Assembly (NCBI GenBank): GCA_043778225.1
Contig: JAYWGM010000068.1
Coordinates: 1-19,405 of the forward strand
Reading direction: 5' to 3'
DNA from: Deinococcales bacterium
Lineage (GTDB): Bacteria; Deinococcota; Deinococci; Deinococcales; JAAFIG01
Length of the DNA stretch: 19,405 nucleotides
Shown here: positions 149 through 13,710 of the stretch, piece by piece
Numbering within the stretch: position 1 is the first letter of the stretch
Layout: every line of letters begins with the position of its first letter
Made by a program: the position numbers and the translations under genes
Notes under the pieces: model-generated
Seen by the model: the letters and a program-made list of their open reading frames with translations, nothing else
What the model was told of the DNA's origin: nothing
Database searches by the model: none

Positions 149-841
149 ATGCGGTTTTACTTTATTCGTCATGCCCAAAGCATCAACAATGCGCTTTTTG
201 AGGCGACTGGCGCAGAGAAAGGACGCTCCGAAGACCCTGAACTCTCGAGCCTTGGGATTAAGCAAGCGGTTGCTCTGGGCGATTTTCTAAGTCGCAATAA
301 CGACCCGCTCGATGGTGGGCAGCGTTTTACCCATTTGTATTGCAGCACCATGACCCGAGCCATCCAAACCGCGCTCGAGGTCGGGCGTGGTACAGGTCTA
401 GCCCCCGTTATCTGGGAAGAGTGGCATGAGACGGGTGGCATTTGGCTCGAGCAGGACGGCGTACAAGTTGGGCAAGCCGGAAAAAACCGAGTCGAACTCG
501 AGGCACGTTTTCCAGGCTTTGATTTTTCGATCTATGGCACACAAGGTTGGTGGTCTCGAGCCGCCGAAACCGACTGCGCTCCTCGGGCAGTCGGTGCGTG
601 GGCAGCCTTGCTTGAGCGACATGGCGGCACAAAAGACCGTGTGGCGATTGTCTCACATGGGCATTTTTATGCCCACATCATGGGGCAAGCCCTCGGACTC
701 GAAGTTGGTTCGGGCAAGCACTGGTTTATGCTCAATAACACCGCCATGACTCGGATTGATTTATCCGAAACCGAGCATCTGAGCCGCGAATTAAAATATG
801 CCAACCGCTTGGCGCATTTATCGCTCGAGCAAATAAGCTAA
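149..841 (+). CDS. Histidine phosphatase (phosphoglycerate mutase-like) family protein
   Basis: N-terminal FIRHAQS (RHG-type catalytic motif), STMTRAIQTA and a C-terminal VAIVSHG motif. Start moved from 38 to ATG 149 because the upstream part translates an AT- and pyrimidine-rich intergenic stretch. Stop overlaps the sbcC start (TAATG). Confidence 0.85.
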   Translation: MRFYFIRHAQSINNALFEATGAEKGRSEDPELSSLGIKQAVALGDFLSRNNDPLDGGQRFTHLYCSTMTRAIQTALEVGRGTGLAPVIWEEWHETGGIWLEQDGVQVGQAGKNRVELEARFPGFDFSIYGTQGWWSRAAETDCAPRAVGAWAALLERHGGTKDRVAIVSHGHFYAHIMGQALGLEVGSGKHWFMLNNTAMTRIDLSETEHLSRELKYANRLAHLSLEQIS

Positions 842-3800
842 TGCGTCCGCTTCGCTTAGAGCTACAGGGCTTTACTTGTTTCAGGGATTTTACAGTCATT
901 GACTTTAGCAACCTCGAGCTATTTGCGATTGTTGGTCAGACTGGTGCGGGTAAATCGAGCATTTTGGATGCGCTTACGTTTGCGCTGTTTGAGCAAACGC
1001 CGCGCTTGGGTTCTAAACCCGCCAAAGAACTGATTTCGCAAGGCAGCCAAGGCATGAGTTTGGCGCTCGAGTTTGAAGCCTCCGATGGGCGTAAATACCG
1101 TGTCGCAAGAACCTACTCGAGTAAAAGCTCGGAGGTGCGGTTTGAGCGCTTTGAAGCCGAAAAGTGGGTCACGGCAGTCGAGCAAATTAAGAAAAAAGAG
1201 GTTGCCGAAGCCATCGAGCGGGTCGTTGGTCTGGACTTTGAAGGGTTTACTCGAGCGGTGCTGTTACCGCAGGGCGAATTTGACCGTTTTTTGCGTGGCG
1301 AACCCAAGCAGCGCCGCGACCTCCTAAAAAACCTGATTGGCTTAGAACGCATCGAGATGATGCAAAAACGCTCGGGCGAATTGGCACGGGAAGCCAAAAC
1401 CAAATCCGAAACAATGCAGACTCAACTCGAGGCATTAGCCGATGCCACACCCGATGCCCTAGAAGCCCTAGAGTTAGAACAAATCGCGCAGCAAAAAGCG
1501 CTTGAAGAAAGTTTGGCTGCCCTTGGTACAGTCCGCCAACAATTGCTGGAAGCCCGAGAAGTCCATCGGATCGAGACCAGTTTAGGACAAGTCAAACTTG
1601 AAATAGAAAATTTAGAAAAGCAGAATCCGCAAATTGACTTGGCAAAAGAACGCTTATCACAAGCCCGACGGGTGGCTGGGGTTTTACCGTTGCTCGAAAA
1701 TCTGCTGCATCTCGAGGCGCGGCGACAACAGACCATCAGCCAAATGACCAACGCCCAAAAGCGTTTGGCGGTTGCCCAAGAAGAACAACAACAAGCCCGA
1801 GAAGCCCTAGAAACCGCCCGAGATGCGGCGCTGGACTCGGGTAGGCTCGAGGCTTTGGTGTTGCAACTCAGCAGCTTACAGCCCCGCTTGGAACGCTTAC
1901 AGGCATTGGGTGGGCGTTTAGCTCGGCAGGCAAACAGTCAGCCTTTTAGCGAAGCGGCTTGGAGCAAGCTCGAGCGACTTGGCGCAGAATTACCGCTTTT
2001 AGACAGAATCGCCAAAGCCTTATCCGAACTCGAGCGCCGCGATAAGGAATTAAATGGGGCTGCCAAGCGCTTAGAAGATGCCCAAACAGCTTTACTCGAG
2101 CAACAAAAAAACTTGGCAAAGTTGCAAAAGCAACAGCTTGAGGATTCGGCACAACTCAAAGAAACACGGCTGGCTGCTGCTAAAATTCCAGCCCTCGAGC
2201 TAACTTTGCGCCGACTCGAGGCACTCAAACCCAAATTACAAAGGCTTTTTGAACTGGGCGGTGATTTAGCACTAACTGAGGGCGGTGTGGTTTTTAGCGA
2301 ACGTGCTTGGTCGCGGCTCGAGACGGTGCAGAGCGAGCTTAGAACCCATGCCAGACTGATAAAACAACAAGCCACCCAGAAAACCGAACTTGAATTGGCA
2401 CGCGATGAACTGCTGAAATGGGAAGGGCAACTCGAGGAAAGCCAAACCAGACTCGAGGGCTTAAAAATTGAAGGTAAAGCCGCCGCCGCCGCCCAAAAAG
2501 CCCTCGAGATGGCACTTGAAGCCGCCAAGCGCCAGAACATTGCGGCTGAGTTGGTGCGTGGTTTAAGCCTTGGCGACCCTTGCCCAGTCTGCCAAAAACC
2601 ACTGACAACCTTGCCCGATTTATCTGGCTCGAGTGTACCCAATGCCCAAGAAGCCCTTGATGCTGGTTTACTCGAGGTCAGCCGTCTGCGCGATGAATAC
2701 ACCCGACTCAAAGAAGCCAGAAAAAACCATGAATTCAATAAAACCAAAGCCGATAAGGATTTAACCCGAACTGAGCAAGCAATGCGCGAAACTGCCGCCG
2801 AGCGCCAACAACTCGAGCAGGGCTGGCAGGATGTTTTAACCGATGTCGACGACCCAAAAAGCGCTGTTCAGATGGCTCGGGCTGCCCTTTTGGCGGGGTT
2901 AGCCAGCGAACTGGCTGGGGCAACCGACCTAGAAGCCCGTATAGCCGCTATTTTAGAAGAGAAAACCACACTCGAGGCTGCTGAGAAAAAAGCCAATCAG
3001 CAAGAAAACGAAACCCGCGCCCAACTTGCCCGCAGCCAAAGTGCCACCGAAGCTGCCCAAGTGTTGCTCGAGAGCCGCTTTATAGAACAAGAAAATGCCC
3101 AACAAGAAAAAATTCGACTGACCGAACAACGCCTTGGTTTGGTCTCCGAGCGCCAAGATTTTGTGGTCAAACTCGAGGCTCAACTTGGCACAAGTTCCAA
3201 CCCAGAAGTGGCTTTGGGTCAGGTTCAGTCCGCCCTTTTGGCGGGTTTAGCCAACGAATTACTCGAGGCTGGGGCAACCAATAACCTGAGTGGCGACATA
3301 AAAACCCTCAAAATCCAGCGCCAGCAACTCGAGCAAACCGAACGTCAAGCCACAGAAACCTTCTCGAATAAAAAAAGTGCCACGGCTGGTTTACAAAGTG
3401 CTTTTGCGGCAGCCCAGCAAAACCTCGAGCTAGTGCAACAAGAAGCCCAAAGCGCCCAACTCAAGACCCAACAGCAACTCGAGCAGTTGGGATTTGAAAC
3501 CAGCCAAGCCGCCCAAGCTGTGGCATTGCCCGAAACCAAAATGCAAGAACTCGAAGCAGGCATCCAACAGCATCAGCAAAACCTGATTCAAGCCAGTCGC
3601 CGTCAGCGCGAACTGTTGCACGAACTGGACGGACGCAGCCTCGAGAGACCACTTTTAGAACTCGAGCAGCAAATCAAAGACCTTGAAGTCAGCAGCCAAA
3701 GCCAGCGCGGTTATCTTGGGCGGCTCGAGGCACAAAAAACCCAGTTGGTGCAACACATCAGTCAAGCCAAAAACCTGCGGCGCGAACAAAATAATTTTGA

Positions 3801-4296
3801 GAAACGTTTTGATGTCTACGCCGCACTAGCAACCGACCTCAAAGGCAACGAATTTCAGGATTATCTTTTGGCGGGGGTACAACAACAACTGCTGCACCGC
3901 GCCAGTAAAACCATGCTTGGAATTACCCGAGAACGCTACACGCTCGAGTTTATCGATTCAGAATTTCATGTCCGCGATGCTTGGAATGGACTCGAGGCGC
4001 GTGGTGTAAAAACTTTATCTGGCGGCGAAAGTTTTATTGCTTCGCTTTCTTTGGCGCTGTCTTTGTCCGACTATTTGGCAGGCAACCAAGCGCTGGGCGC
4101 ACTTTTTCTCGATGAGGGCTTTGGCACACTCGATGCTGATGCACTTGAAATGGTCGCCAACACCCTCGAGAATCTGCAAACCCAAGGGCGAATGGTTGGC
4201 GTGATTACCCACGTTCCAGCCCTAGCCGAACGCTTGCCGGTGCGCTTACTGATTGAAAAAGCCCAAGACACCAGCCGTGTCAGTTGGGATTCTTAG
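841..4296 (+). CDS. sbcC: SbcC/Rad50-type SMC-like ATPase (SbcCD nuclease subunit C), unusually long at 1151 aa
   Basis: Walker [11 protein letters not shown]-loop LLPQGEF, central zinc hook CPVC (nt 2581), signature LSGGE, Walker B/D-loop [12 protein letters not shown]-switch VITH, and long heptad coiled coils. Confidence 0.95.
1807..3500 (+). repeat. Paired internal duplications in the sbcC coiled-coil arms, 348-nt (116-aa) period on each side of the zinc hook; boundaries approximate
   Basis: N-arm: ...[13 protein letters not shown]...[10 protein letters not shown] versus ...[13 protein letters not shown]...[10 protein letters not shown] (LGG at nt 1906 and 2254). C-arm: [14 protein letters not shown] versus [16 protein letters not shown] (nt 2884 and 3232). 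Both offsets are 348 nt. Confidence 0.85.
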
Positions 4297-5984
4297 CCAC
4301 CCAAGATACTCGAGTCTATTTTGAAATCTTCGGCAATCAGCCGCGCCGTCATTTTGGCGCTCATCATCACGCTCGGTGTGCCGCCGCCCGGTTGTGCGCC
4401 CGCCCCAACCATATAAAAACGTTCGATGTCCTCGGAGCGGTTGTGCGGTCTGAAAAAGGCGCTTTGTGCCAGAATCGGTTCGGGTCCAAAAGCATTGCCA
4501 AGGTAACTCGAGAGCGTGCCTTCAAAGTAGTCTGGGTCAATAAAACTCTGGTAGACCAAGCGCTGGCGCAAATTGGGAATATAACCGCGCTCCTCGAGAA
4601 AACGCAGAATTTTATCCACAAAAGGCTGCCCTAAAAGTTCCCAATCGAGTTTCGAGCCATTGTGCGGCACAGGGACAAGCGTATACGCCACATGATGCCC
4701 TTCTGGCGCAAGGCTTGGGTCGGTCAAGCTGGGAATATGCAGATATTGCGAGAAGTCTTTAGCCAGAATTTTACGCCCAAAAATATCTTTTAAGAGTTCT
4801 TCATAGCGCGGTCCCAAAATAATGTTGTGGTGCTTGAGGTTGGTTTCTAAACCATCGGCTTTGAAGCCAAAATAAACCACCACCAAACTCATGCTTTGCG
4901 GCGCGATTTTGACCTTAAAATCTGAGTTCCAGTTGCGAAACTTATTGGGAATCAGCTTCATGTAGGTGTTGGCATAATCGCCATTGGAAACCACCAAATC
5001 TGCCTCGAGGCTCTCGTTATTCTCGAGGGTTACACCTTTGGCAATTTTCTTTGAGAAACGCCCGACCGGCTCTGCCCCCAATTCATTTTGGATTTGAACA
5101 CTCGAGACAGGTGCATTAAAGCGAATTGTGCCGCCCATCTCTTCAAATTTTTGCACAAAGGCATTGACCAACGCGCCAGTTCCCCCAAGCGCAAAGTGTA
5201 TCCCCCATGTTTTTTCGACAAAGTGAATCATCGCGTAAATCGAAGGCACAGATAACGGATTGCCACCAACCAGCAGCGTCTCGAAGCTAAAGACTTGCTG
5301 CATTTTTGGGTTCTTAAAGTATTTTTTGGCAAAACCAAAAAGTGTCCGAATCGCATCGAGTTTCATTAAGTCTGGCACAACTTTAAGCATACTTACAACA
5401 TCGCCAAAGTGGGTATAACCAAGCTCGAGAAAACCACGTTCAAAAATTGCTTTAGCGTCGCTATGAAACTGCTCATAGCCAAGCAAATCCTCTGGAGCAA
5501 GGGTCTTTATTTGACTGCGGGTGCTGACTGGATCGCCATCGTAATCAAAGAATGTACCATCGTCAAAATAAATGCGGTAAAACGGCAAAATCGGCACAAG
5601 CTGTACATATTTGCTGGTATTGACCCCACCCGAGACCCCTGTCTTGACCCGAGCATTCTCGGTCAGGGTGTGCGGCGGGTAATCTGGGGTCGAAAGCATG
5701 GCTTTATTTGGCTCGAGACTAAAAAGTTCTTCGATAAAATGCGGCACGGTAATCACAGTTGGACCCATGTCAAAGGTAAAGCCTTGGTGCGGCTTGAGGG
5801 CGGCACGCTGTTTAACTTCTGTCCAAACCCCGTCTTGCTGCACGACTTTACGCACATACGCCCGCCCGCCGGGCGCATCGAGTTTCTCGAGAATTGTGGT
5901 CTCAAAACCAAGGCTTTGTAGCCGAATACCAAGGCTCAGTCCACCAATGCCACTGCCAATAATAATTGCTTTACGTCGTTCCAT
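4293..5984 (-). CDS. crtI: Phytoene desaturase (CrtI family)
   Basis: FAD-binding [20 protein letters not shown] and C-terminal [18 protein letters not shown]. Carries the PDYPP...GVSGG insert I recognise from Deinococcus CrtI. Stop overlaps the sbcC stop convergently by 4 nt. Confidence 0.92.
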
Positions 5985-6934: not shown

Positions 6935-7432
6935 ATGAACTTAATGGTCAATGGAAAATCCACGCTTGTGCCTGAGTCACAGCGTCTCGAGCCACTTGTC
7001 TGGGTGCTGCGTGACACCCTCGGGTTGGTGGGTACGCGCTACGGCTGCGGCATTGGGGTTTGCGGAGCGTGCAATGTACTACTGGATGGCAAAGTCGTGC
7101 GCTCTTGTCAAACTCCAGTCCAGACAGCCTTGGGTAAAGAAATCATCACGCTCGAGGGTCTGGCAATGGGGAACGAGTTGCATCCAGTGCAACAAGCCTT
7201 TCTCGAGAATCCTTTGCAGTGCTGCTGGTGCATGACTGGGCATATCATGAACGCGGTCGAATTGCTCGAAAACAATAAGCAGCCTTCGCCCAACCAGATT
7301 GATGATGCCATGAACGATAATTATTGTCGTTGCGGTGGCTATAACAGCATTCGTGCCAACGTCGTTCGGGCTTCGGAAATCGCCTCGAGCCAGCCAGCCG
7401 CCAAACGCTTGAGCATTCGGAGGAAATCATGA
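6935..7432 (+). CDS. (2Fe-2S)-binding small subunit, isoquinoline 1-oxidoreductase alpha / CoxS-like
   Basis: GTRYGCGIGVCGACNV...SC (first 2Fe-2S cluster) and LQCCWCMTG...YCRCGGY (second cluster). ATGA overlap with the next gene. Confidence 0.9.
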   Translation: MNLMVNGKSTLVPESQRLEPLVWVLRDTLGLVGTRYGCGIGVCGACNVLLDGKVVRSCQTPVQTALGKEIITLEGLAMGNELHPVQQAFLENPLQCCWCMTGHIMNAVELLENNKQPSPNQIDDAMNDNYCRCGGYNSIRANVVRASEIASSQPAAKRLSIRRKS

Positions 7433-9624
7433 AACGCGCTCCTAAACCTAAGCCCGATGCGGTAACTCGTCCCAAGCCCGATGCGGCGACTCGTTGGAAG
7501 ACCACGCGACGGCGTTTGTTAATCGGAGCGGGTAGCCTTGGTGTGTTGGCGGTCGGTGGCTATTTTGGTCTCGAGGCGGGTCGTCCGCTTTTGGTAGACC
7601 GAATCGAAGGCGCAGGTGCGCCAAGCAGTCCAGCCCCTACTAATCCAAATCTGTGGTTTGAACTTAAAGCCGATAAAATTGTGTTTTTTGCCCCAAAATT
7701 TGAAATGGGTCAGGGCATTCAAAGTGCGCTGGCGCAAATCGCTGCCGAAGAACTCGAGGTCGATTGGCAAAGTCTCGAGTTACGTCAACCAGATTCGCAA
7801 CATGGTTTTGCACCCACCTTTATGTTTACTTTTGGCAGTACCTCGGTCAAGGATTTGTACCAACCGATCCGCGAAATGGCAGCCAGTCTGCGCGAAATGC
7901 TGCGAACCGAGGCGGCTTTACAACTAGGAACAGATAGCTCGAGTATCGAAATAAAAAATGGTCTGTGCAGCCTAAAAACCGATTCAAGTAAAACCTTGTC
8001 GTATGGCGCAGTGGTGGCAGCCAAAAAAGGCGAATGGGTGATGCCTAAAACCCCACCCACGCTAAAAGCCAAAAGCGAATTTACCACGATTGGTAAGCCG
8101 TTAAGCCGCTTGGATGCCAAGTCCAAAGTCATCGGGCAGCCTGTTTACAGCATGGATGCTCGAGCCGAAGGAATGCTGTACGGGGCGGTGGCTCGAGCGC
8201 CAAGGTTTGGGGCAAAACTCGAGACTGCCACGGCTGGACAAGCCGAAAGTCAAGTTGGTGTGGTTAAAGTTGTAATAGATTTGGCTGCTCATTTTGCGGG
8301 GGTGGTAGCCGAGACTCGCACCCAAGCTCGCAACGCCTTAAAATTCCTAAAGCTGACTTGGGTTGGCGGCACGAGTATTTCTCAAGCCGAATTGGACACC
8401 CTCGTGACTGCCAAAGCTGGGGCTGGTGTGGTGGTTCGTAAGCGTGGTCAGTCTGGCTTAACTGGCGATGTGGTTACGGCTTCGTACCGCACGCCATTTG
8501 CCGCTCACGCTCACCTCGAGCCTTTGGCAGCCTTAGCCGATGTTAAAGAAAAAAGCATTGATGTTTGGGTCGGTACGCAAGCTGCAAATTCCGACGAAAG
8601 CGCGATTAAAAAAGTAGTACCAGGCAATCGCAGTATTAAAATTTACCCGATGCAAATGGGTGGCAGTTTTGGGCGCAAAGGCAGCCAGAGTGCTGCTCCA
8701 GAAGCCGCCAGACTCTCGGCGGCAGTCGGTAAACCAGTCCATGTGGCGTGGACTCGAGAAGAAGAAATGCAGCAAAGTTTTTATCGCCCACCGACCAATA
8801 CCCTGCTCCAAGCCACGCTCGAGAATGGCATGATTACGGGGGTAGAGCAGGTGACTGCCAGTGGTGATATTCTATTTAGCATCATTCCGATTCCAGCTTT
8901 TATTAAGAACACCATCGGCTTTGATTTTGGTGTGTTAAGCGGACAATTTCTGCCGTACAGCCTTGCCAATTACACAGTTCGTAGCCAACGTATTGACCTG
9001 CCGATTCCAACCGGACCGTGGCGCGGTGTGGGCTTAATGCCCAATGTTTTTGCTTTAGAGAGTTTTATGGATGAATTGGCATTGGCAGCTAAGACCGACC
9101 CACTCGAGTTTAGGTTAAAACACACTTCTAACCCACGCATGAAAGCCGTACTCGAGGATGTCCAAATCCGTTCTGATTGGGCAAAACCAGCCCCAAATGG
9201 CGTGGCTCGAGGTGTGGCGTACTGCACAGCGGTTGGCACATTTGTAGCGATGGTTGTGGAAATTCGGCTCGAGGGCAAAGAAATTTTGGTGCAACGTGTA
9301 ACGGTCAGTATAGACGCTGGAATTGTGGTCAATCCGACCAATGCAGCCCTGCAAGCACGGGGCAGTGTGGTCATGGGGCTGAGTTCGACCTTGCTCGAGA
9401 AAATTGTTATCGAGAACGGCGCAGTGGTACAAAGTAATTTTAAGGATTATCCGCTTATCACCCTCAAAGCCACGCCTAAAATTATTGATGTGCATTTTAT
9501 GGAAAACGCCGAAGCCCCTTCGGGCATGGGCGAACCCGTGATTGGACCAGTGCCAGCCGCCGTTGCCAATGCCTTATTTGCCCTGAATGGACAACGCCTA
9601 CGGGAATTGCCATTGGTGCTGTGA
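7429..9624 (+). CDS. Molybdopterin-binding large subunit, isoquinoline 1-oxidoreductase beta (IorB)-like, with Tat-like signal
   Basis: TTRRRLLIG followed by a hydrophobic stretch (twin-arginine-like), EMGQGI, GSTSV, AHAHLEP, MGGSFGRK, GPWRGVG and SGMGEP, all typical of IorB-type xanthine dehydrogenase family subunits. Confidence 0.88.
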   Translation: MKRAPKPKPDAVTRPKPDAATRWKTTRRRLLIGAGSLGVLAVGGYFGLEAGRPLLVDRIEGAGAPSSPAPTNPNLWFELKADKIVFFAPKFEMGQGIQSALAQIAAEELEVDWQSLELRQPDSQHGFAPTFMFTFGSTSVKDLYQPIREMAASLREMLRTEAALQLGTDSSSIEIKNGLCSLKTDSSKTLSYGAVVAAKKGEWVMPKTPPTLKAKSEFTTIGKPLSRLDAKSKVIGQPVYSMDARAEGMLYGAVARAPRFGAKLETATAGQAESQVGVVKVVIDLAAHFAGVVAETRTQARNALKFLKLTWVGGTSISQAELDTLVTAKAGAGVVVRKRGQSGLTGDVVTASYRTPFAAHAHLEPLAALADVKEKSIDVWVGTQAANSDESAIKKVVPGNRSIKIYPMQMGGSFGRKGSQSAAPEAARLSAAVGKPVHVAWTREEEMQQSFYRPPTNTLLQATLENGMITGVEQVTASGDILFSIIPIPAFIKNTIGFDFGVLSGQFLPYSLANYTVRSQRIDLPIPTGPWRGVGLMPNVFALESFMDELALAAKTDPLEFRLKHTSNPRMKAVLEDVQIRSDWAKPAPNGVARGVAYCTAVGTFVAMVVEIRLEGKEILVQRVTVSIDAGIVVNPTNAALQARGSVVMGLSSTLLEKIVIENGAVVQSNFKDYPLITLKATPKIIDVHFMENAEAPSGMGEPVIGPVPAAVANALFALNGQRLRELPLVL
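7447..7494 (+). repeat. 24-nt tandem duplication encoding PKPDAVTR / PKPDAATR
   Basis: CCTAAGCCCGATGCGGTAACTCGT followed by CCCAAGCCCGATGCGGCGACTCGT, 21 of 24 positions identical. Confidence 0.85.
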
Positions 9625-12322: not shown

Positions 12323-12838
12323 TTGAAAAAACAATTGGCGATAATTATTTCTGGGTTTTTCTTTTTTAGCGTACTCGGTCAGGGTACAAAATTAGAACGA
12401 CACAATCCGATGCCCGAAATCACCATGCAAACCATGCGTGGCGAAAACATTCAACTCTCGAGTTTACGCGGTAAGCCTGTGCTGCTTAACTTCTGGGCTG
12501 CTTGGTGTGGACCCTGCCGCAATGAAATTCCTGTACTTGAACGTTTACAAGCCAAGTACCCGAGCATTCAAATCATTGGTGTGAATGTGGGCGAGAGTCA
12601 ACGCACGATCAATCGTTTTTTAGCCGATAACCCTATTTCGTATCCAGTTTGGATGGATCAACCCGATGGTGGTACAAATGTCGAACAACAAATGACGCAA
12701 TGGCAAGGACAAGCGAGTGGTTGGAGCATTCCATATACGGTTCTTGTGCGTAAAGATGGCATCATAGATGAAACCATTCTTGGCTTTGATGGTTCTGGAC
12801 GTGAACTCGAGCAAGCCATTCGAGAGGTCTTACAATGA
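12323..12838 (+). CDS. TlpA/ResA-family thiol-disulfide oxidoreductase, exported
   Basis: LLNFWAAWCGPCRNEIP, IIGVN and cis-Pro motif SIPYT, with an N-terminal signal or anchor. TTG start at 12323 follows GGGAG; alternative GTG starts at 12293 and 12296. Confidence 0.85.
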   Translation: MKKQLAIIISGFFFFSVLGQGTKLERHNPMPEITMQTMRGENIQLSSLRGKPVLLNFWAAWCGPCRNEIPVLERLQAKYPSIQIIGVNVGESQRTINRFLADNPISYPVWMDQPDGGTNVEQQMTQWQGQASGWSIPYTVLVRKDGIIDETILGFDGSGRELEQAIREVLQ

Positions 12839-13710
12839 AATGGAGCGTCATGAAATTCTTAAAAAATACCATCGTTTTCTTTGGCATCATCTTCAGTGCT
12901 GCCCAAGCCCAAACATATCTGCCAGATGTCTCGAGTAATCCACTGTACGGCGAATTGCTTTGGCACACACTGGCATACCGACAAGATGTGGCTGTCTATC
13001 CGGGTGAATTTGCACCGCGAATGCCACTTGAAATTATGATTCCTGAAGGTGGGCGCTTAATTGGCTCGGTGGTACGAGAATATGGCTCGCGGACTCGAGA
13101 AGTAACTGTCGTGCTAGAGAGCAAATTAACTTACGAAGAAGTCGGTGGTTTCTATAGACCTAAAGTCAAAGCACCGTGGCTTGAGCAATTACCAACCCCA
13201 AGCGGCTTTAGTTTTTCATCAAACGGGCAAAATGGTGGAGGCTACTTGCCTTTGTGCAACACAGCCACAGGTACTCGAGTTGATATATACGCCAATCCAA
13301 AAAATGTAGCCAATTGGCAAGCCAGCCCAAGTTTTATTTACATTCGATTTTTTGAAGCTGGACAGTCTGGCAATGGCTGCAACGATACACCATGGCAATT
13401 TCCAGTTTTAATTGTGCCAAACAACACCAGTCCATTTGGTGGAAATGGTGCTAACTTTGGCGATTTTAATTGCTCAGCCCTATCCTTTAATCTTCGCAAT
13501 ACCACTGCAAAAAAGCTCTTTGATGGCTTTGCGGCACAATTGCCAAGTACATGGCAACGTCTATCGGTTAGCGAGGATGAAACTGGTGTGGCAGCGGTCT
13601 ATCGTTATCTAGACCCCAAACAATCGGGCATTGCGGTCTTATCCGTCAATCAATTTAAGGAGCGTCCTGATGCTTACAGCGCACGCTTAATCGCCCTACC
13701 TCAACCCTAA
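12835..13710 (+). CDS. Secreted hypothetical protein
   Basis: 291-aa ORF with an ATGA overlap to tlpA, signal peptide ending AQA, three Cys residues, and no recognised catalytic motif. Confidence 0.7.
   Translation: MKWSVMKFLKNTIVFFGIIFSAAQAQTYLPDVSSNPLYGELLWHTLAYRQDVAVYPGEFAPRMPLEIMIPEGGRLIGSVVREYGSRTREVTVVLESKLTYEEVGGFYRPKVKAPWLEQLPTPSGFSFSSNGQNGGGYLPLCNTATGTRVDIYANPKNVANWQASPSFIYIRFFEAGQSGNGCNDTPWQFPVLIVPNNTSPFGGNGANFGDFNCSALSFNLRNTTAKKLFDGFAAQLPSTWQRLSVSEDETGVAAVYRYLDPKQSGIAVLSVNQFKERPDAYSARLIALPQP

Follow-up and report, generated by a model that had tools for sequence, protein, structure and literature searches.

Paired duplication in both strands of the coiled-coil arm of SbcC from an uncultured genus of Deinococcales

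The sbcC locus

The window analysed here, the whole stretch of 19,405 nucleotides of contig JAYWGM010000068.1 from a Deinococcales bacterium, carries an intact sbcC gene encoding a protein of 1151 aa (Table 1). The Pfam models AAA_23, SMC_N and SbcC_Walker_B all exceed their cut-offs, and the motifs are those of a split ABC ATPase head, with Walker A and the Q-loop in the N-terminal part and the signature, Walker B, D-loop and His loop in the C-terminal part. A CxxC zinc hook, for which zinc binding is predicted, is found centrally in the protein, where SMC has its hinge. The G-x-P-C..C sequence of the hook is invariant in the alignments, and both AlphaFold2 models described below have a beta-hairpin turn at the hook and a long antiparallel coiled coil leading to it from the head. 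The best fold matches of the arm models include the arms of MukB, Smc and Rad50, at the level of generic coiled coils. TIGR00618 (sbcc) is the best NCBIfam model, with 280 bits against a cut-off of 478.5; an ordinary relative of 923 aa, with 292 bits, also falls below this value, and the cut-off therefore does not cover this group. Judged from its sequence, the window protein is an ordinary SbcC, a variation on a known protein, and it should behave as any SbcC, with a predicted ATP-dependent nuclease activity, exerted together with SbcD, towards hairpins and blocked ends. The heads of SbcC bind DNA ends together with SbcD, and the hooks join two arms. A match above cut-off to TIGR00619, the model for the SbcD/Mre11 partner, is located on another contig than sbcC (G000:C58:18550-19305). 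In the window genus sbcD is not beside sbcC in any of the five loci scanned, and in relatives it lies within the fetched sbcC locus in 14 of 15 cases.

A histidine-phosphatase gene (1-841 side) overlaps the start of sbcC, and a phytoene-desaturase-like gene (4293-5984, minus strand; Pfam Amino_oxidase), which we take to be CrtI, runs towards sbcC, with an overlap of 4 nt at the stop of sbcC. Elsewhere in the window are a gene pair of the xanthine/aldehyde-oxidoreductase type (6935-9624, plus strand), with an Fe-S small and a molybdopterin large subunit and with all NCBIfam matches below cut-off, and, after a thioredoxin-like gene, an open reading frame of 291 aa (12835-13710, plus strand) whose start resembles a signal peptide and which matches no NCBIfam model.

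Table 1. Features of the sbcC gene in the window, with the boundaries of the repeated units
Feature	Position (nt)	Strand	Basis and remarks
sbcC gene	841-4296	+	intact ORF, 1151 aa; Pfam AAA_23, SMC_N, SbcC_Walker_B; top NCBIfam model TIGR00618 sbcc
Walker A, aa 32-39	934-957	+	sequence
N-strand copy 1 (outer, head-side), ~aa 294-409	1720-2067	+	self-alignment, profiles; ends +/- ~10 aa
Knuckle loop of N copy 1 (LGG...FSE, aa 356-370)	1906-1950	+	AlphaFold2 secondary structure; 15 non-helical residues
N-strand copy 2 (inner, hook-side), ~aa 410-525	2068-2415	+	self-alignment, profiles
Knuckle loop of N copy 2, aa 472-486	2254-2298	+	AlphaFold2 secondary structure
Zinc-hook CPVC, aa 581-584	2581-2592	+	single copy; turning point of the arm
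C-strand copy 1 (inner), ~aa 644-760	2770-3120	+	self-alignment, profiles, AlphaFold2; knuckle loop-helix(ALLAGLA)-loop at aa 663-696
C-strand copy 2 (outer), ~aa 761-876	3121-3468	+	self-alignment, profiles, AlphaFold2; knuckle aa 783-815
ABC signature LSGGE, aa 1059-1063	4015-4029	+	sequence
Walker B LFLDE, aa 1088-1092, then D-loop	4102-4116	+	sequence; Pfam PF13558

The repeated units and their predicted structure

A unit of about 116 aa is present twice on each strand of the arm, on either side of the zinc hook, with about 36% identity between the copies. Its anchors are LGG (aa 356 and 472) and FSE (369 and 485) on the N strand and ERQ (654 and 770) and ALLAG (682 and 798) on the C strand, arranged around CPVC at 581. 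The preliminary description of this DNA had given the same LGG and ALLAG positions, offsets of 116 and distances to the hook of 109/225 and 101/217, all of which are correct; its repeat region, 1807-3500, contains real repeats but was begun too late, the true start being at about nt 1720. On the N strand the best ungapped diagonal of the whole protein has an offset of 116 (aa 294-392 against 410-508, 36 of 99 residues identical) and scores 137; shuffling blocks of 7 residues 100 times gives 47 +/- 6 and at most 67. On the C strand the ungapped score is marginal (74 at offset 119 and 65 at offset 116; shuffles 45 +/- 6, maximum 68) because an indel of 2-3 residues sits after ALLAGLA; AGAT is found at aa 692 and 810, an offset of 118. 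When gaps are allowed, aa 644-754 align to aa 761-873 with a score of 111 and 40 of 110 residues identical (52 +/- 10, maximum 90, in 300 shuffles). Self-alignments of short relatives score at the shuffle level (57/40 for G011, 50/53 for G207 and 62/60 for G028), and these values and the block shuffles rule out generic heptad similarity, which the earlier account had set against its own reading. At the DNA level only traces of the repeat survive (37 nt at 84% and 31 nt at 74%, each spaced 348 nt), which excludes an assembly artefact, as does the finding that copies of only 36% identity are common to the genus. In a profile of 13 proteins of the window genus the units span about aa 290-405/406-521 (N) and 635-752/751-870 (C).

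The palindrome CTCGAG is by far the commonest hexamer in the 4.03 Mb genome (G000), with 24,877 occurrences, or 6.2 per kb, which is about 27 times the 931 expected from base composition; the next hexamer occurs 8,682 times, and GGCC, like several further palindromes, is almost absent. This abundance resembles the highly iterated palindromes of cyanobacteria. Loci from many further genera of Deinococcota show an enrichment of CTCGAG too, L040, L068 and L074 being exceptions, and a literature search on the palindrome found nothing. Two CTCGAG sites are in register between the N copies (1846/2194 and 1969/2317). We claim no link between the palindrome and the duplication, since the sites encode conserved Leu-Glu pairs, CTCGAG is equally common in short-armed sister genera, and it is not enriched in the locus of the long-armed G197.

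The arm was modelled with AlphaFold2 in a short form (G011, aa 251-700, 27 sequences, pLDDT 91.8) and in the long form (aa 241-940; 17 sequences, all of the long type; pLDDT 87.5, with a low pTM of 0.32). In the short-arm model each strand has one interruption, which on the N strand runs as a helix, a break, a 13-residue helix, a break, a 9-residue helix and a 16-residue loop, and on the C strand as a loop, a 24-residue helix and a loop; in the long-arm model this helix-break pattern appears twice on each strand. According to the models, the unit would comprise a single rod segment and a conserved knuckle, in which a 15-residue N-strand loop would face a C-strand loop-helix-loop. The knuckle motifs GG.L...[WFY][SD]E and LLAGLA...GG.DP are conserved across Deinococcota. 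A sequence search of solved structures for the knuckle returned only generic coiled coils, and fold searches with the arm models returned arm matches of high rmsd.

In the long-arm model 85 helical residues lie between the inner N loop and the hook, as against 64 + 19 on the C side, and 101 lie between the two N loops, as against 86 + 22 between the two C loops. Because these helix lengths on facing strands fit, each inner copy would pair with the inner copy of the other strand, and likewise for the outer copies, a pairing read from helix lengths rather than from coordinates and consistent with the nested arrangement (N copy 1 with C copy 2, N copy 2 with C copy 1) that had been anticipated. 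With about 1 nm per heptad of coiled coil, a figure taken from an excerpt of PMC5082667, the gain of about 100 helical residues would correspond to an estimated 14-15 nm, and the whole arm would, as a rough estimate, grow from 38 to 53 nm.

Distribution and balance of the doubling

The close relatives of the window are metagenome-assembled Deinococcales. All seven other genomes of the window genus match the SbcC; three of them have complete proteins (1151-1157 aa), two have proteins that end at contig ends and contain both N copies, and the remaining two contain fragments, which were left unscored. Further proteins, nine of 1150-1158 aa and three more, all have two N and two C modules, and this is the case for 13 of 13 aligned complete proteins of the genus. 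Eight complete proteins from three sister genera of the same family are 923-932 aa long; their hook is at 468-477, and each has a single N and a single C module. Forty-two short proteins went into the module profiles and match them by construction. Since the sister genera carry one copy per strand, the doubling is derived, and it is older than the spread of the genus. Copies within a protein are about 33% identical, as compared with about 50% between orthologous copies across the genus. Relative to the 923-aa form the long protein has gained 113 aa before the hook and 115 aa after it. This agrees well with the preliminary description, which had predicted a balanced extension and an ancestor that had about 920 aa and a single block on each strand; its concern that all related SbcC proteins might carry both copies is answered by the 1+1 form of the three sister genera, and the doubling throughout the genus, like its recurrence elsewhere, had escaped it. 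In ATPase motifs, CxxC hook, antiparallel arm and the presence of sbcD in the genome, the window protein is like the other Deinococcota SbcC/Rad50 proteins of SbcCD (Mre11-Rad50), whose short forms examined here have 896-977 aa, and it differs from them in an arm that is about 114 aa longer per strand through the doubled rod-and-knuckle unit.

Within the genus the four copies are 49-53% identical, as against 50-52% for the unduplicated arm, and the heads are 85% identical. The dN/dS values of the four copies are 0.16-0.21 (G003 vs G001) and 0.14-0.19 (G301 vs G310), all four genomes being relatives and not the window genome, and in these two pairs all four copies are under purifying selection.

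The balance of the two strands was analysed in 337 sequences, of which 321 are distinct and 286 have Walker A, hook and signature. The sample consists of the matches listed (best 120 of 878 and best 150 of 3589) and holds many close kin; a genome search with the hook region was used to choose further loci, and one of a set of 20 loci had no usable frame. The N arm is longer than the C arm by 22-99 aa in all 286 complete SbcCs (mean 70, r = 0.94). A unit on one strand only would give a difference of about 185 or -45 aa, and such a whole-unit imbalance occurs in 0 of the 286. By module count 172 proteins are 1+1 and 24 are 2+2; six are 1+2, which represent the balanced 69/80 type described below, two are 2+1, these being 1107-aa near-copies of G197 in which the inner C module is weak, and 82 are below threshold on one or both strands. 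The identity between copies is alike for N and C in several proteins (33/32% in the window, 35/35% in G301, 36/38% in G288 and 51/51% in G220) and uneven in others (37/29% in G310, 63/52% in P0122, 43/63% in P0137 and 29/37% in P0090). These identities indicate that the N and C pairs of the window genus are of similar age, and that the match is noisy in other proteins. No unbalanced intermediate is present among the 286 complete SbcCs, and we thus infer the order of events.

A search of 301 Deinococcota genomes gave a match in 253, and among the matches listed (best 150 of 502) long SbcCs are found in at least two other families. Proteins of genus g47 in family f2, which includes proteins named Trueperaceae, have 1146-1164 aa and units of 102 and 112-118 aa; G197 (labelled Deinococcaceae) and P0090 have 1107-1114 aa and units near 104 and 96 aa. 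Unrooted trees of the non-duplicated parts were built with 48 rows (quick tree) and with 55 rows. They contain three long groups, each nested in its own family, and short forms surround each of them in five families; three changes are forced by the starred branches of the 48-row tree. A single origin spread by gene transfer is rejected, since one clade of long forms has a p-AU of 1e-41 (55 rows). The knuckle doubling thus arose three times in Deinococcota. In trees of the modules, which have about 110 columns, leave many forks open and omit 15 rows that were close or partial, the copies of the window genus group together with SH-aLRT values of 82 (N) and 93 (C), and those of g47 with 99 and 87, and the copies of G197 are long branches inside their own family, not together. 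Gene conversion between copies could also yield such grouping by lineage.

It can be argued that the double form was ancestral in Deinococcota and that the short forms lost one unit many times, as an unrooted tree cannot separate gain from loss and recombination can delete repeats. We find this highly improbable: the copies group by lineage and not inner with inner across families, the unit sizes differ by lineage (116/116, 102/112-118 and 104/96), and many parallel losses would be needed because short forms surround each long group.

Paired changes of other sizes were also observed. A different unit, located headward of the knuckle and measuring 69 aa (N strand) and 80 aa (C strand), has been doubled in P0137, P0152, G110, G161, G104 and G146; the last four belong to genus g7, and four carriers come from nearly complete genomes. 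The distant SbcC P0226 has a 115/133-aa pair with 51/44% identity, and P0186, which at 710 aa is the shortest complete form, lacks some 95 and 120 aa at corresponding positions headward of the knuckle. The paired inserts in P0155, P0158 and P0169 (43-50 aa) were not counted as duplications, their self-repeat being not above shuffles, and the self-alignments of P0220 and P0250 are at or near the shuffle level. The sequences thus contain at least five independent paired duplications. The copies are more alike in G220 and P0122 (51-63%, and up to 87% over 60 nt in G220), and the N offset of both is that of G301; we read this as one g47 origin followed by gene conversion, with a further event being possible.

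The sbcC gene of G220 (L069:2656-5972) is frameshifted and its hook segment is missing, which may be a lesion or an assembly error; the near relative P0122 is intact. SbcCs of the Thermus type (953-977 aa; e.g. G038, L054:1790-4720) are longer mainly on the C strand, and the N strand of G038 has a weak self-match at an offset of about 156 (score 101, shuffle maximum 95).

Proposed history and significance

Our data suggest that the arm was probably lengthened by two in-frame tandem duplications, one per strand, in the ancestor of the genus. Two tandem duplications of about 348 nt would have occurred close in time in the ancestor of this one uncultured Deinococcales genus. A one-sided duplication would put the strands out of register and be short-lived, the repeat being deleted or selected against, unless a matching copy on the other strand followed soon and the balanced product was kept; the two would have been fixed close together, since only with both copies in place would the protein fold in register. 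Cells of Deinococcus and Thermus contain multiple copies of the genome, and in a cell of this kind two singly duplicated alleles possibly recombined across the hook region. The outcome would be an extra rod and knuckle inserted between head and hook, both of which keep their register.

The alternative is one nested event, in which the hook region was exchanged for a fragment of a second copy of this gene that carried an N unit, the hook and a C unit. The final sequence would be identical to the product of two duplications, and such an event would fit both the finding that no one-sided form exists among the 286 complete sequences and the similar age of the N and C pairs in the window genus, G301, G288 and G220. 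However, two out-of-register junctions would be required at once, and the ages of the strands are unequal in some proteins (P0137, 43/63%), which makes this event unlikely in our view. Of the two mechanisms in the preliminary description, two compensating duplications or a nested replacement, both fit as long as the nested event took place within the lineage; the module trees, where inner and outer copies group by lineage, lend no support to inner copies from a foreign donor.

Two duplications, as we propose, could be fixed with or without a benefit. The longer arm may be neutral, balanced doublings being tolerated and drifting to fixation without functional gain, and this is quite conceivable, if somewhat short of probable. 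Neutrality is compatible with the proposed history, and purifying selection shows that the copies must fold, not that length is favoured; in addition, the arm length in the family varies widely, from 20 to 60 nm according to the portions consulted of bioRxiv 10.1101/2020.06.24.160820 and of PMC7752040. Yet a newly formed tandem repeat of 348 nt would be prone to deletion (in D. radiodurans, direct repeats of 438 bp are efficient substrates for recombination, as stated in an extract of PMC4627823), and both repeats were kept genus-wide; moreover, the knuckle unit was fixed three times. If the longer arm does have an effect, it would most likely be on ring size and the timing of arm closure, not on nuclease chemistry. 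The preliminary description had raised a possible change in the reach of DNA-end tethering.

The arms of SMC proteins offer a close comparison. In the sections consulted of Burmann et al. 2017 (PMC5344682), both strands change together in natural steps of about 100 aa, as in SbcC, and the functional windows of Smc have a period of 91 aa, near the superhelical period of about 99 aa. The same sections base the SMC steps on length distributions and engineered arms and do not trace them to internal duplications; they regard Rad50 lengths as probably reflecting the same property, with the critical role of periodic elements in Rad50 unclear. If the step in SbcC were set by a superhelical period as in Bacillus Smc, only about 91-99 helical residues would keep phase, which would explain the three knuckle doublings: these add about 85-101 helical residues, the window unit giving about 101 on the N strand of the model, and the units of g47 (102 aa) and the g36 type (104/96 aa) giving about 85-90 after subtraction of a 15-17 aa loop whose length is taken by homology. 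Against this, the 69/80-aa additions were kept in at least six sequences, and there are the paired steps of 43-50 aa (P0155, P0158, P0169) and 115/133 aa (P0226). The steps thus span about 45 to 133 aa, and SbcC arms therefore do not seem to follow one Smc-like period; we consider the superhelical account of the step doubtful, and, taken as sequences, the natural SbcC alleles argue against one strict length period.

Knuckles and kinks would instead be the natural borders, and the arms would therefore be lengthened and shortened by paired modules of differing size and not by one fixed period. It is tempting to go further and regard SbcC arms as built of rod-and-joint modules that evolve by paired duplication and deletion, with joints that reset the superhelical phase and so let SbcC escape the Smc period, and with longer arms selected for the DNA that is sensed or held by the ring; this wider proposal is speculative, and we put it forward only tentatively. 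Chemoreceptor hairpins are comparable in that a folded-back coiled coil varies in paired units on both strands, and their classes are reportedly the result of symmetric insertions and deletions. They are formed by an unrelated protein with units of a few heptads, in length classes from 12 to 32 paired heptads (Alexander and Zhulin 2007, as quoted in a part of PMC6628036), whereas the SbcC units have 70-130 residues and contain a joint.

A literature search of titles and abstracts, in which subscription journals are poorly covered, found no description of internal duplications that are paired between the strands of an SbcC, Rad50 or SMC arm. The paired doubling is real, derived and recurrent, and apparently undescribed as a mechanism; new are its recurrence, the other paired duplications and the 0 of 286 whole-unit imbalances.

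Across the tree of life the length of Rad50/SbcC arms varies threefold, and the role of length or phase is left open in the sections of PMC5344682 referred to above. The genes described here show a natural route by which arm length changes, and they provide borders at which arms could be cut or extended without loss of register. Matched short and long alleles are on offer for testing arm length, including the 69/80-aa variant, which is present in nearly complete genomes from a genus in which many species have been sequenced. The genes are also clear cases of two mutations, useful or harmless only jointly, that were fixed repeatedly.
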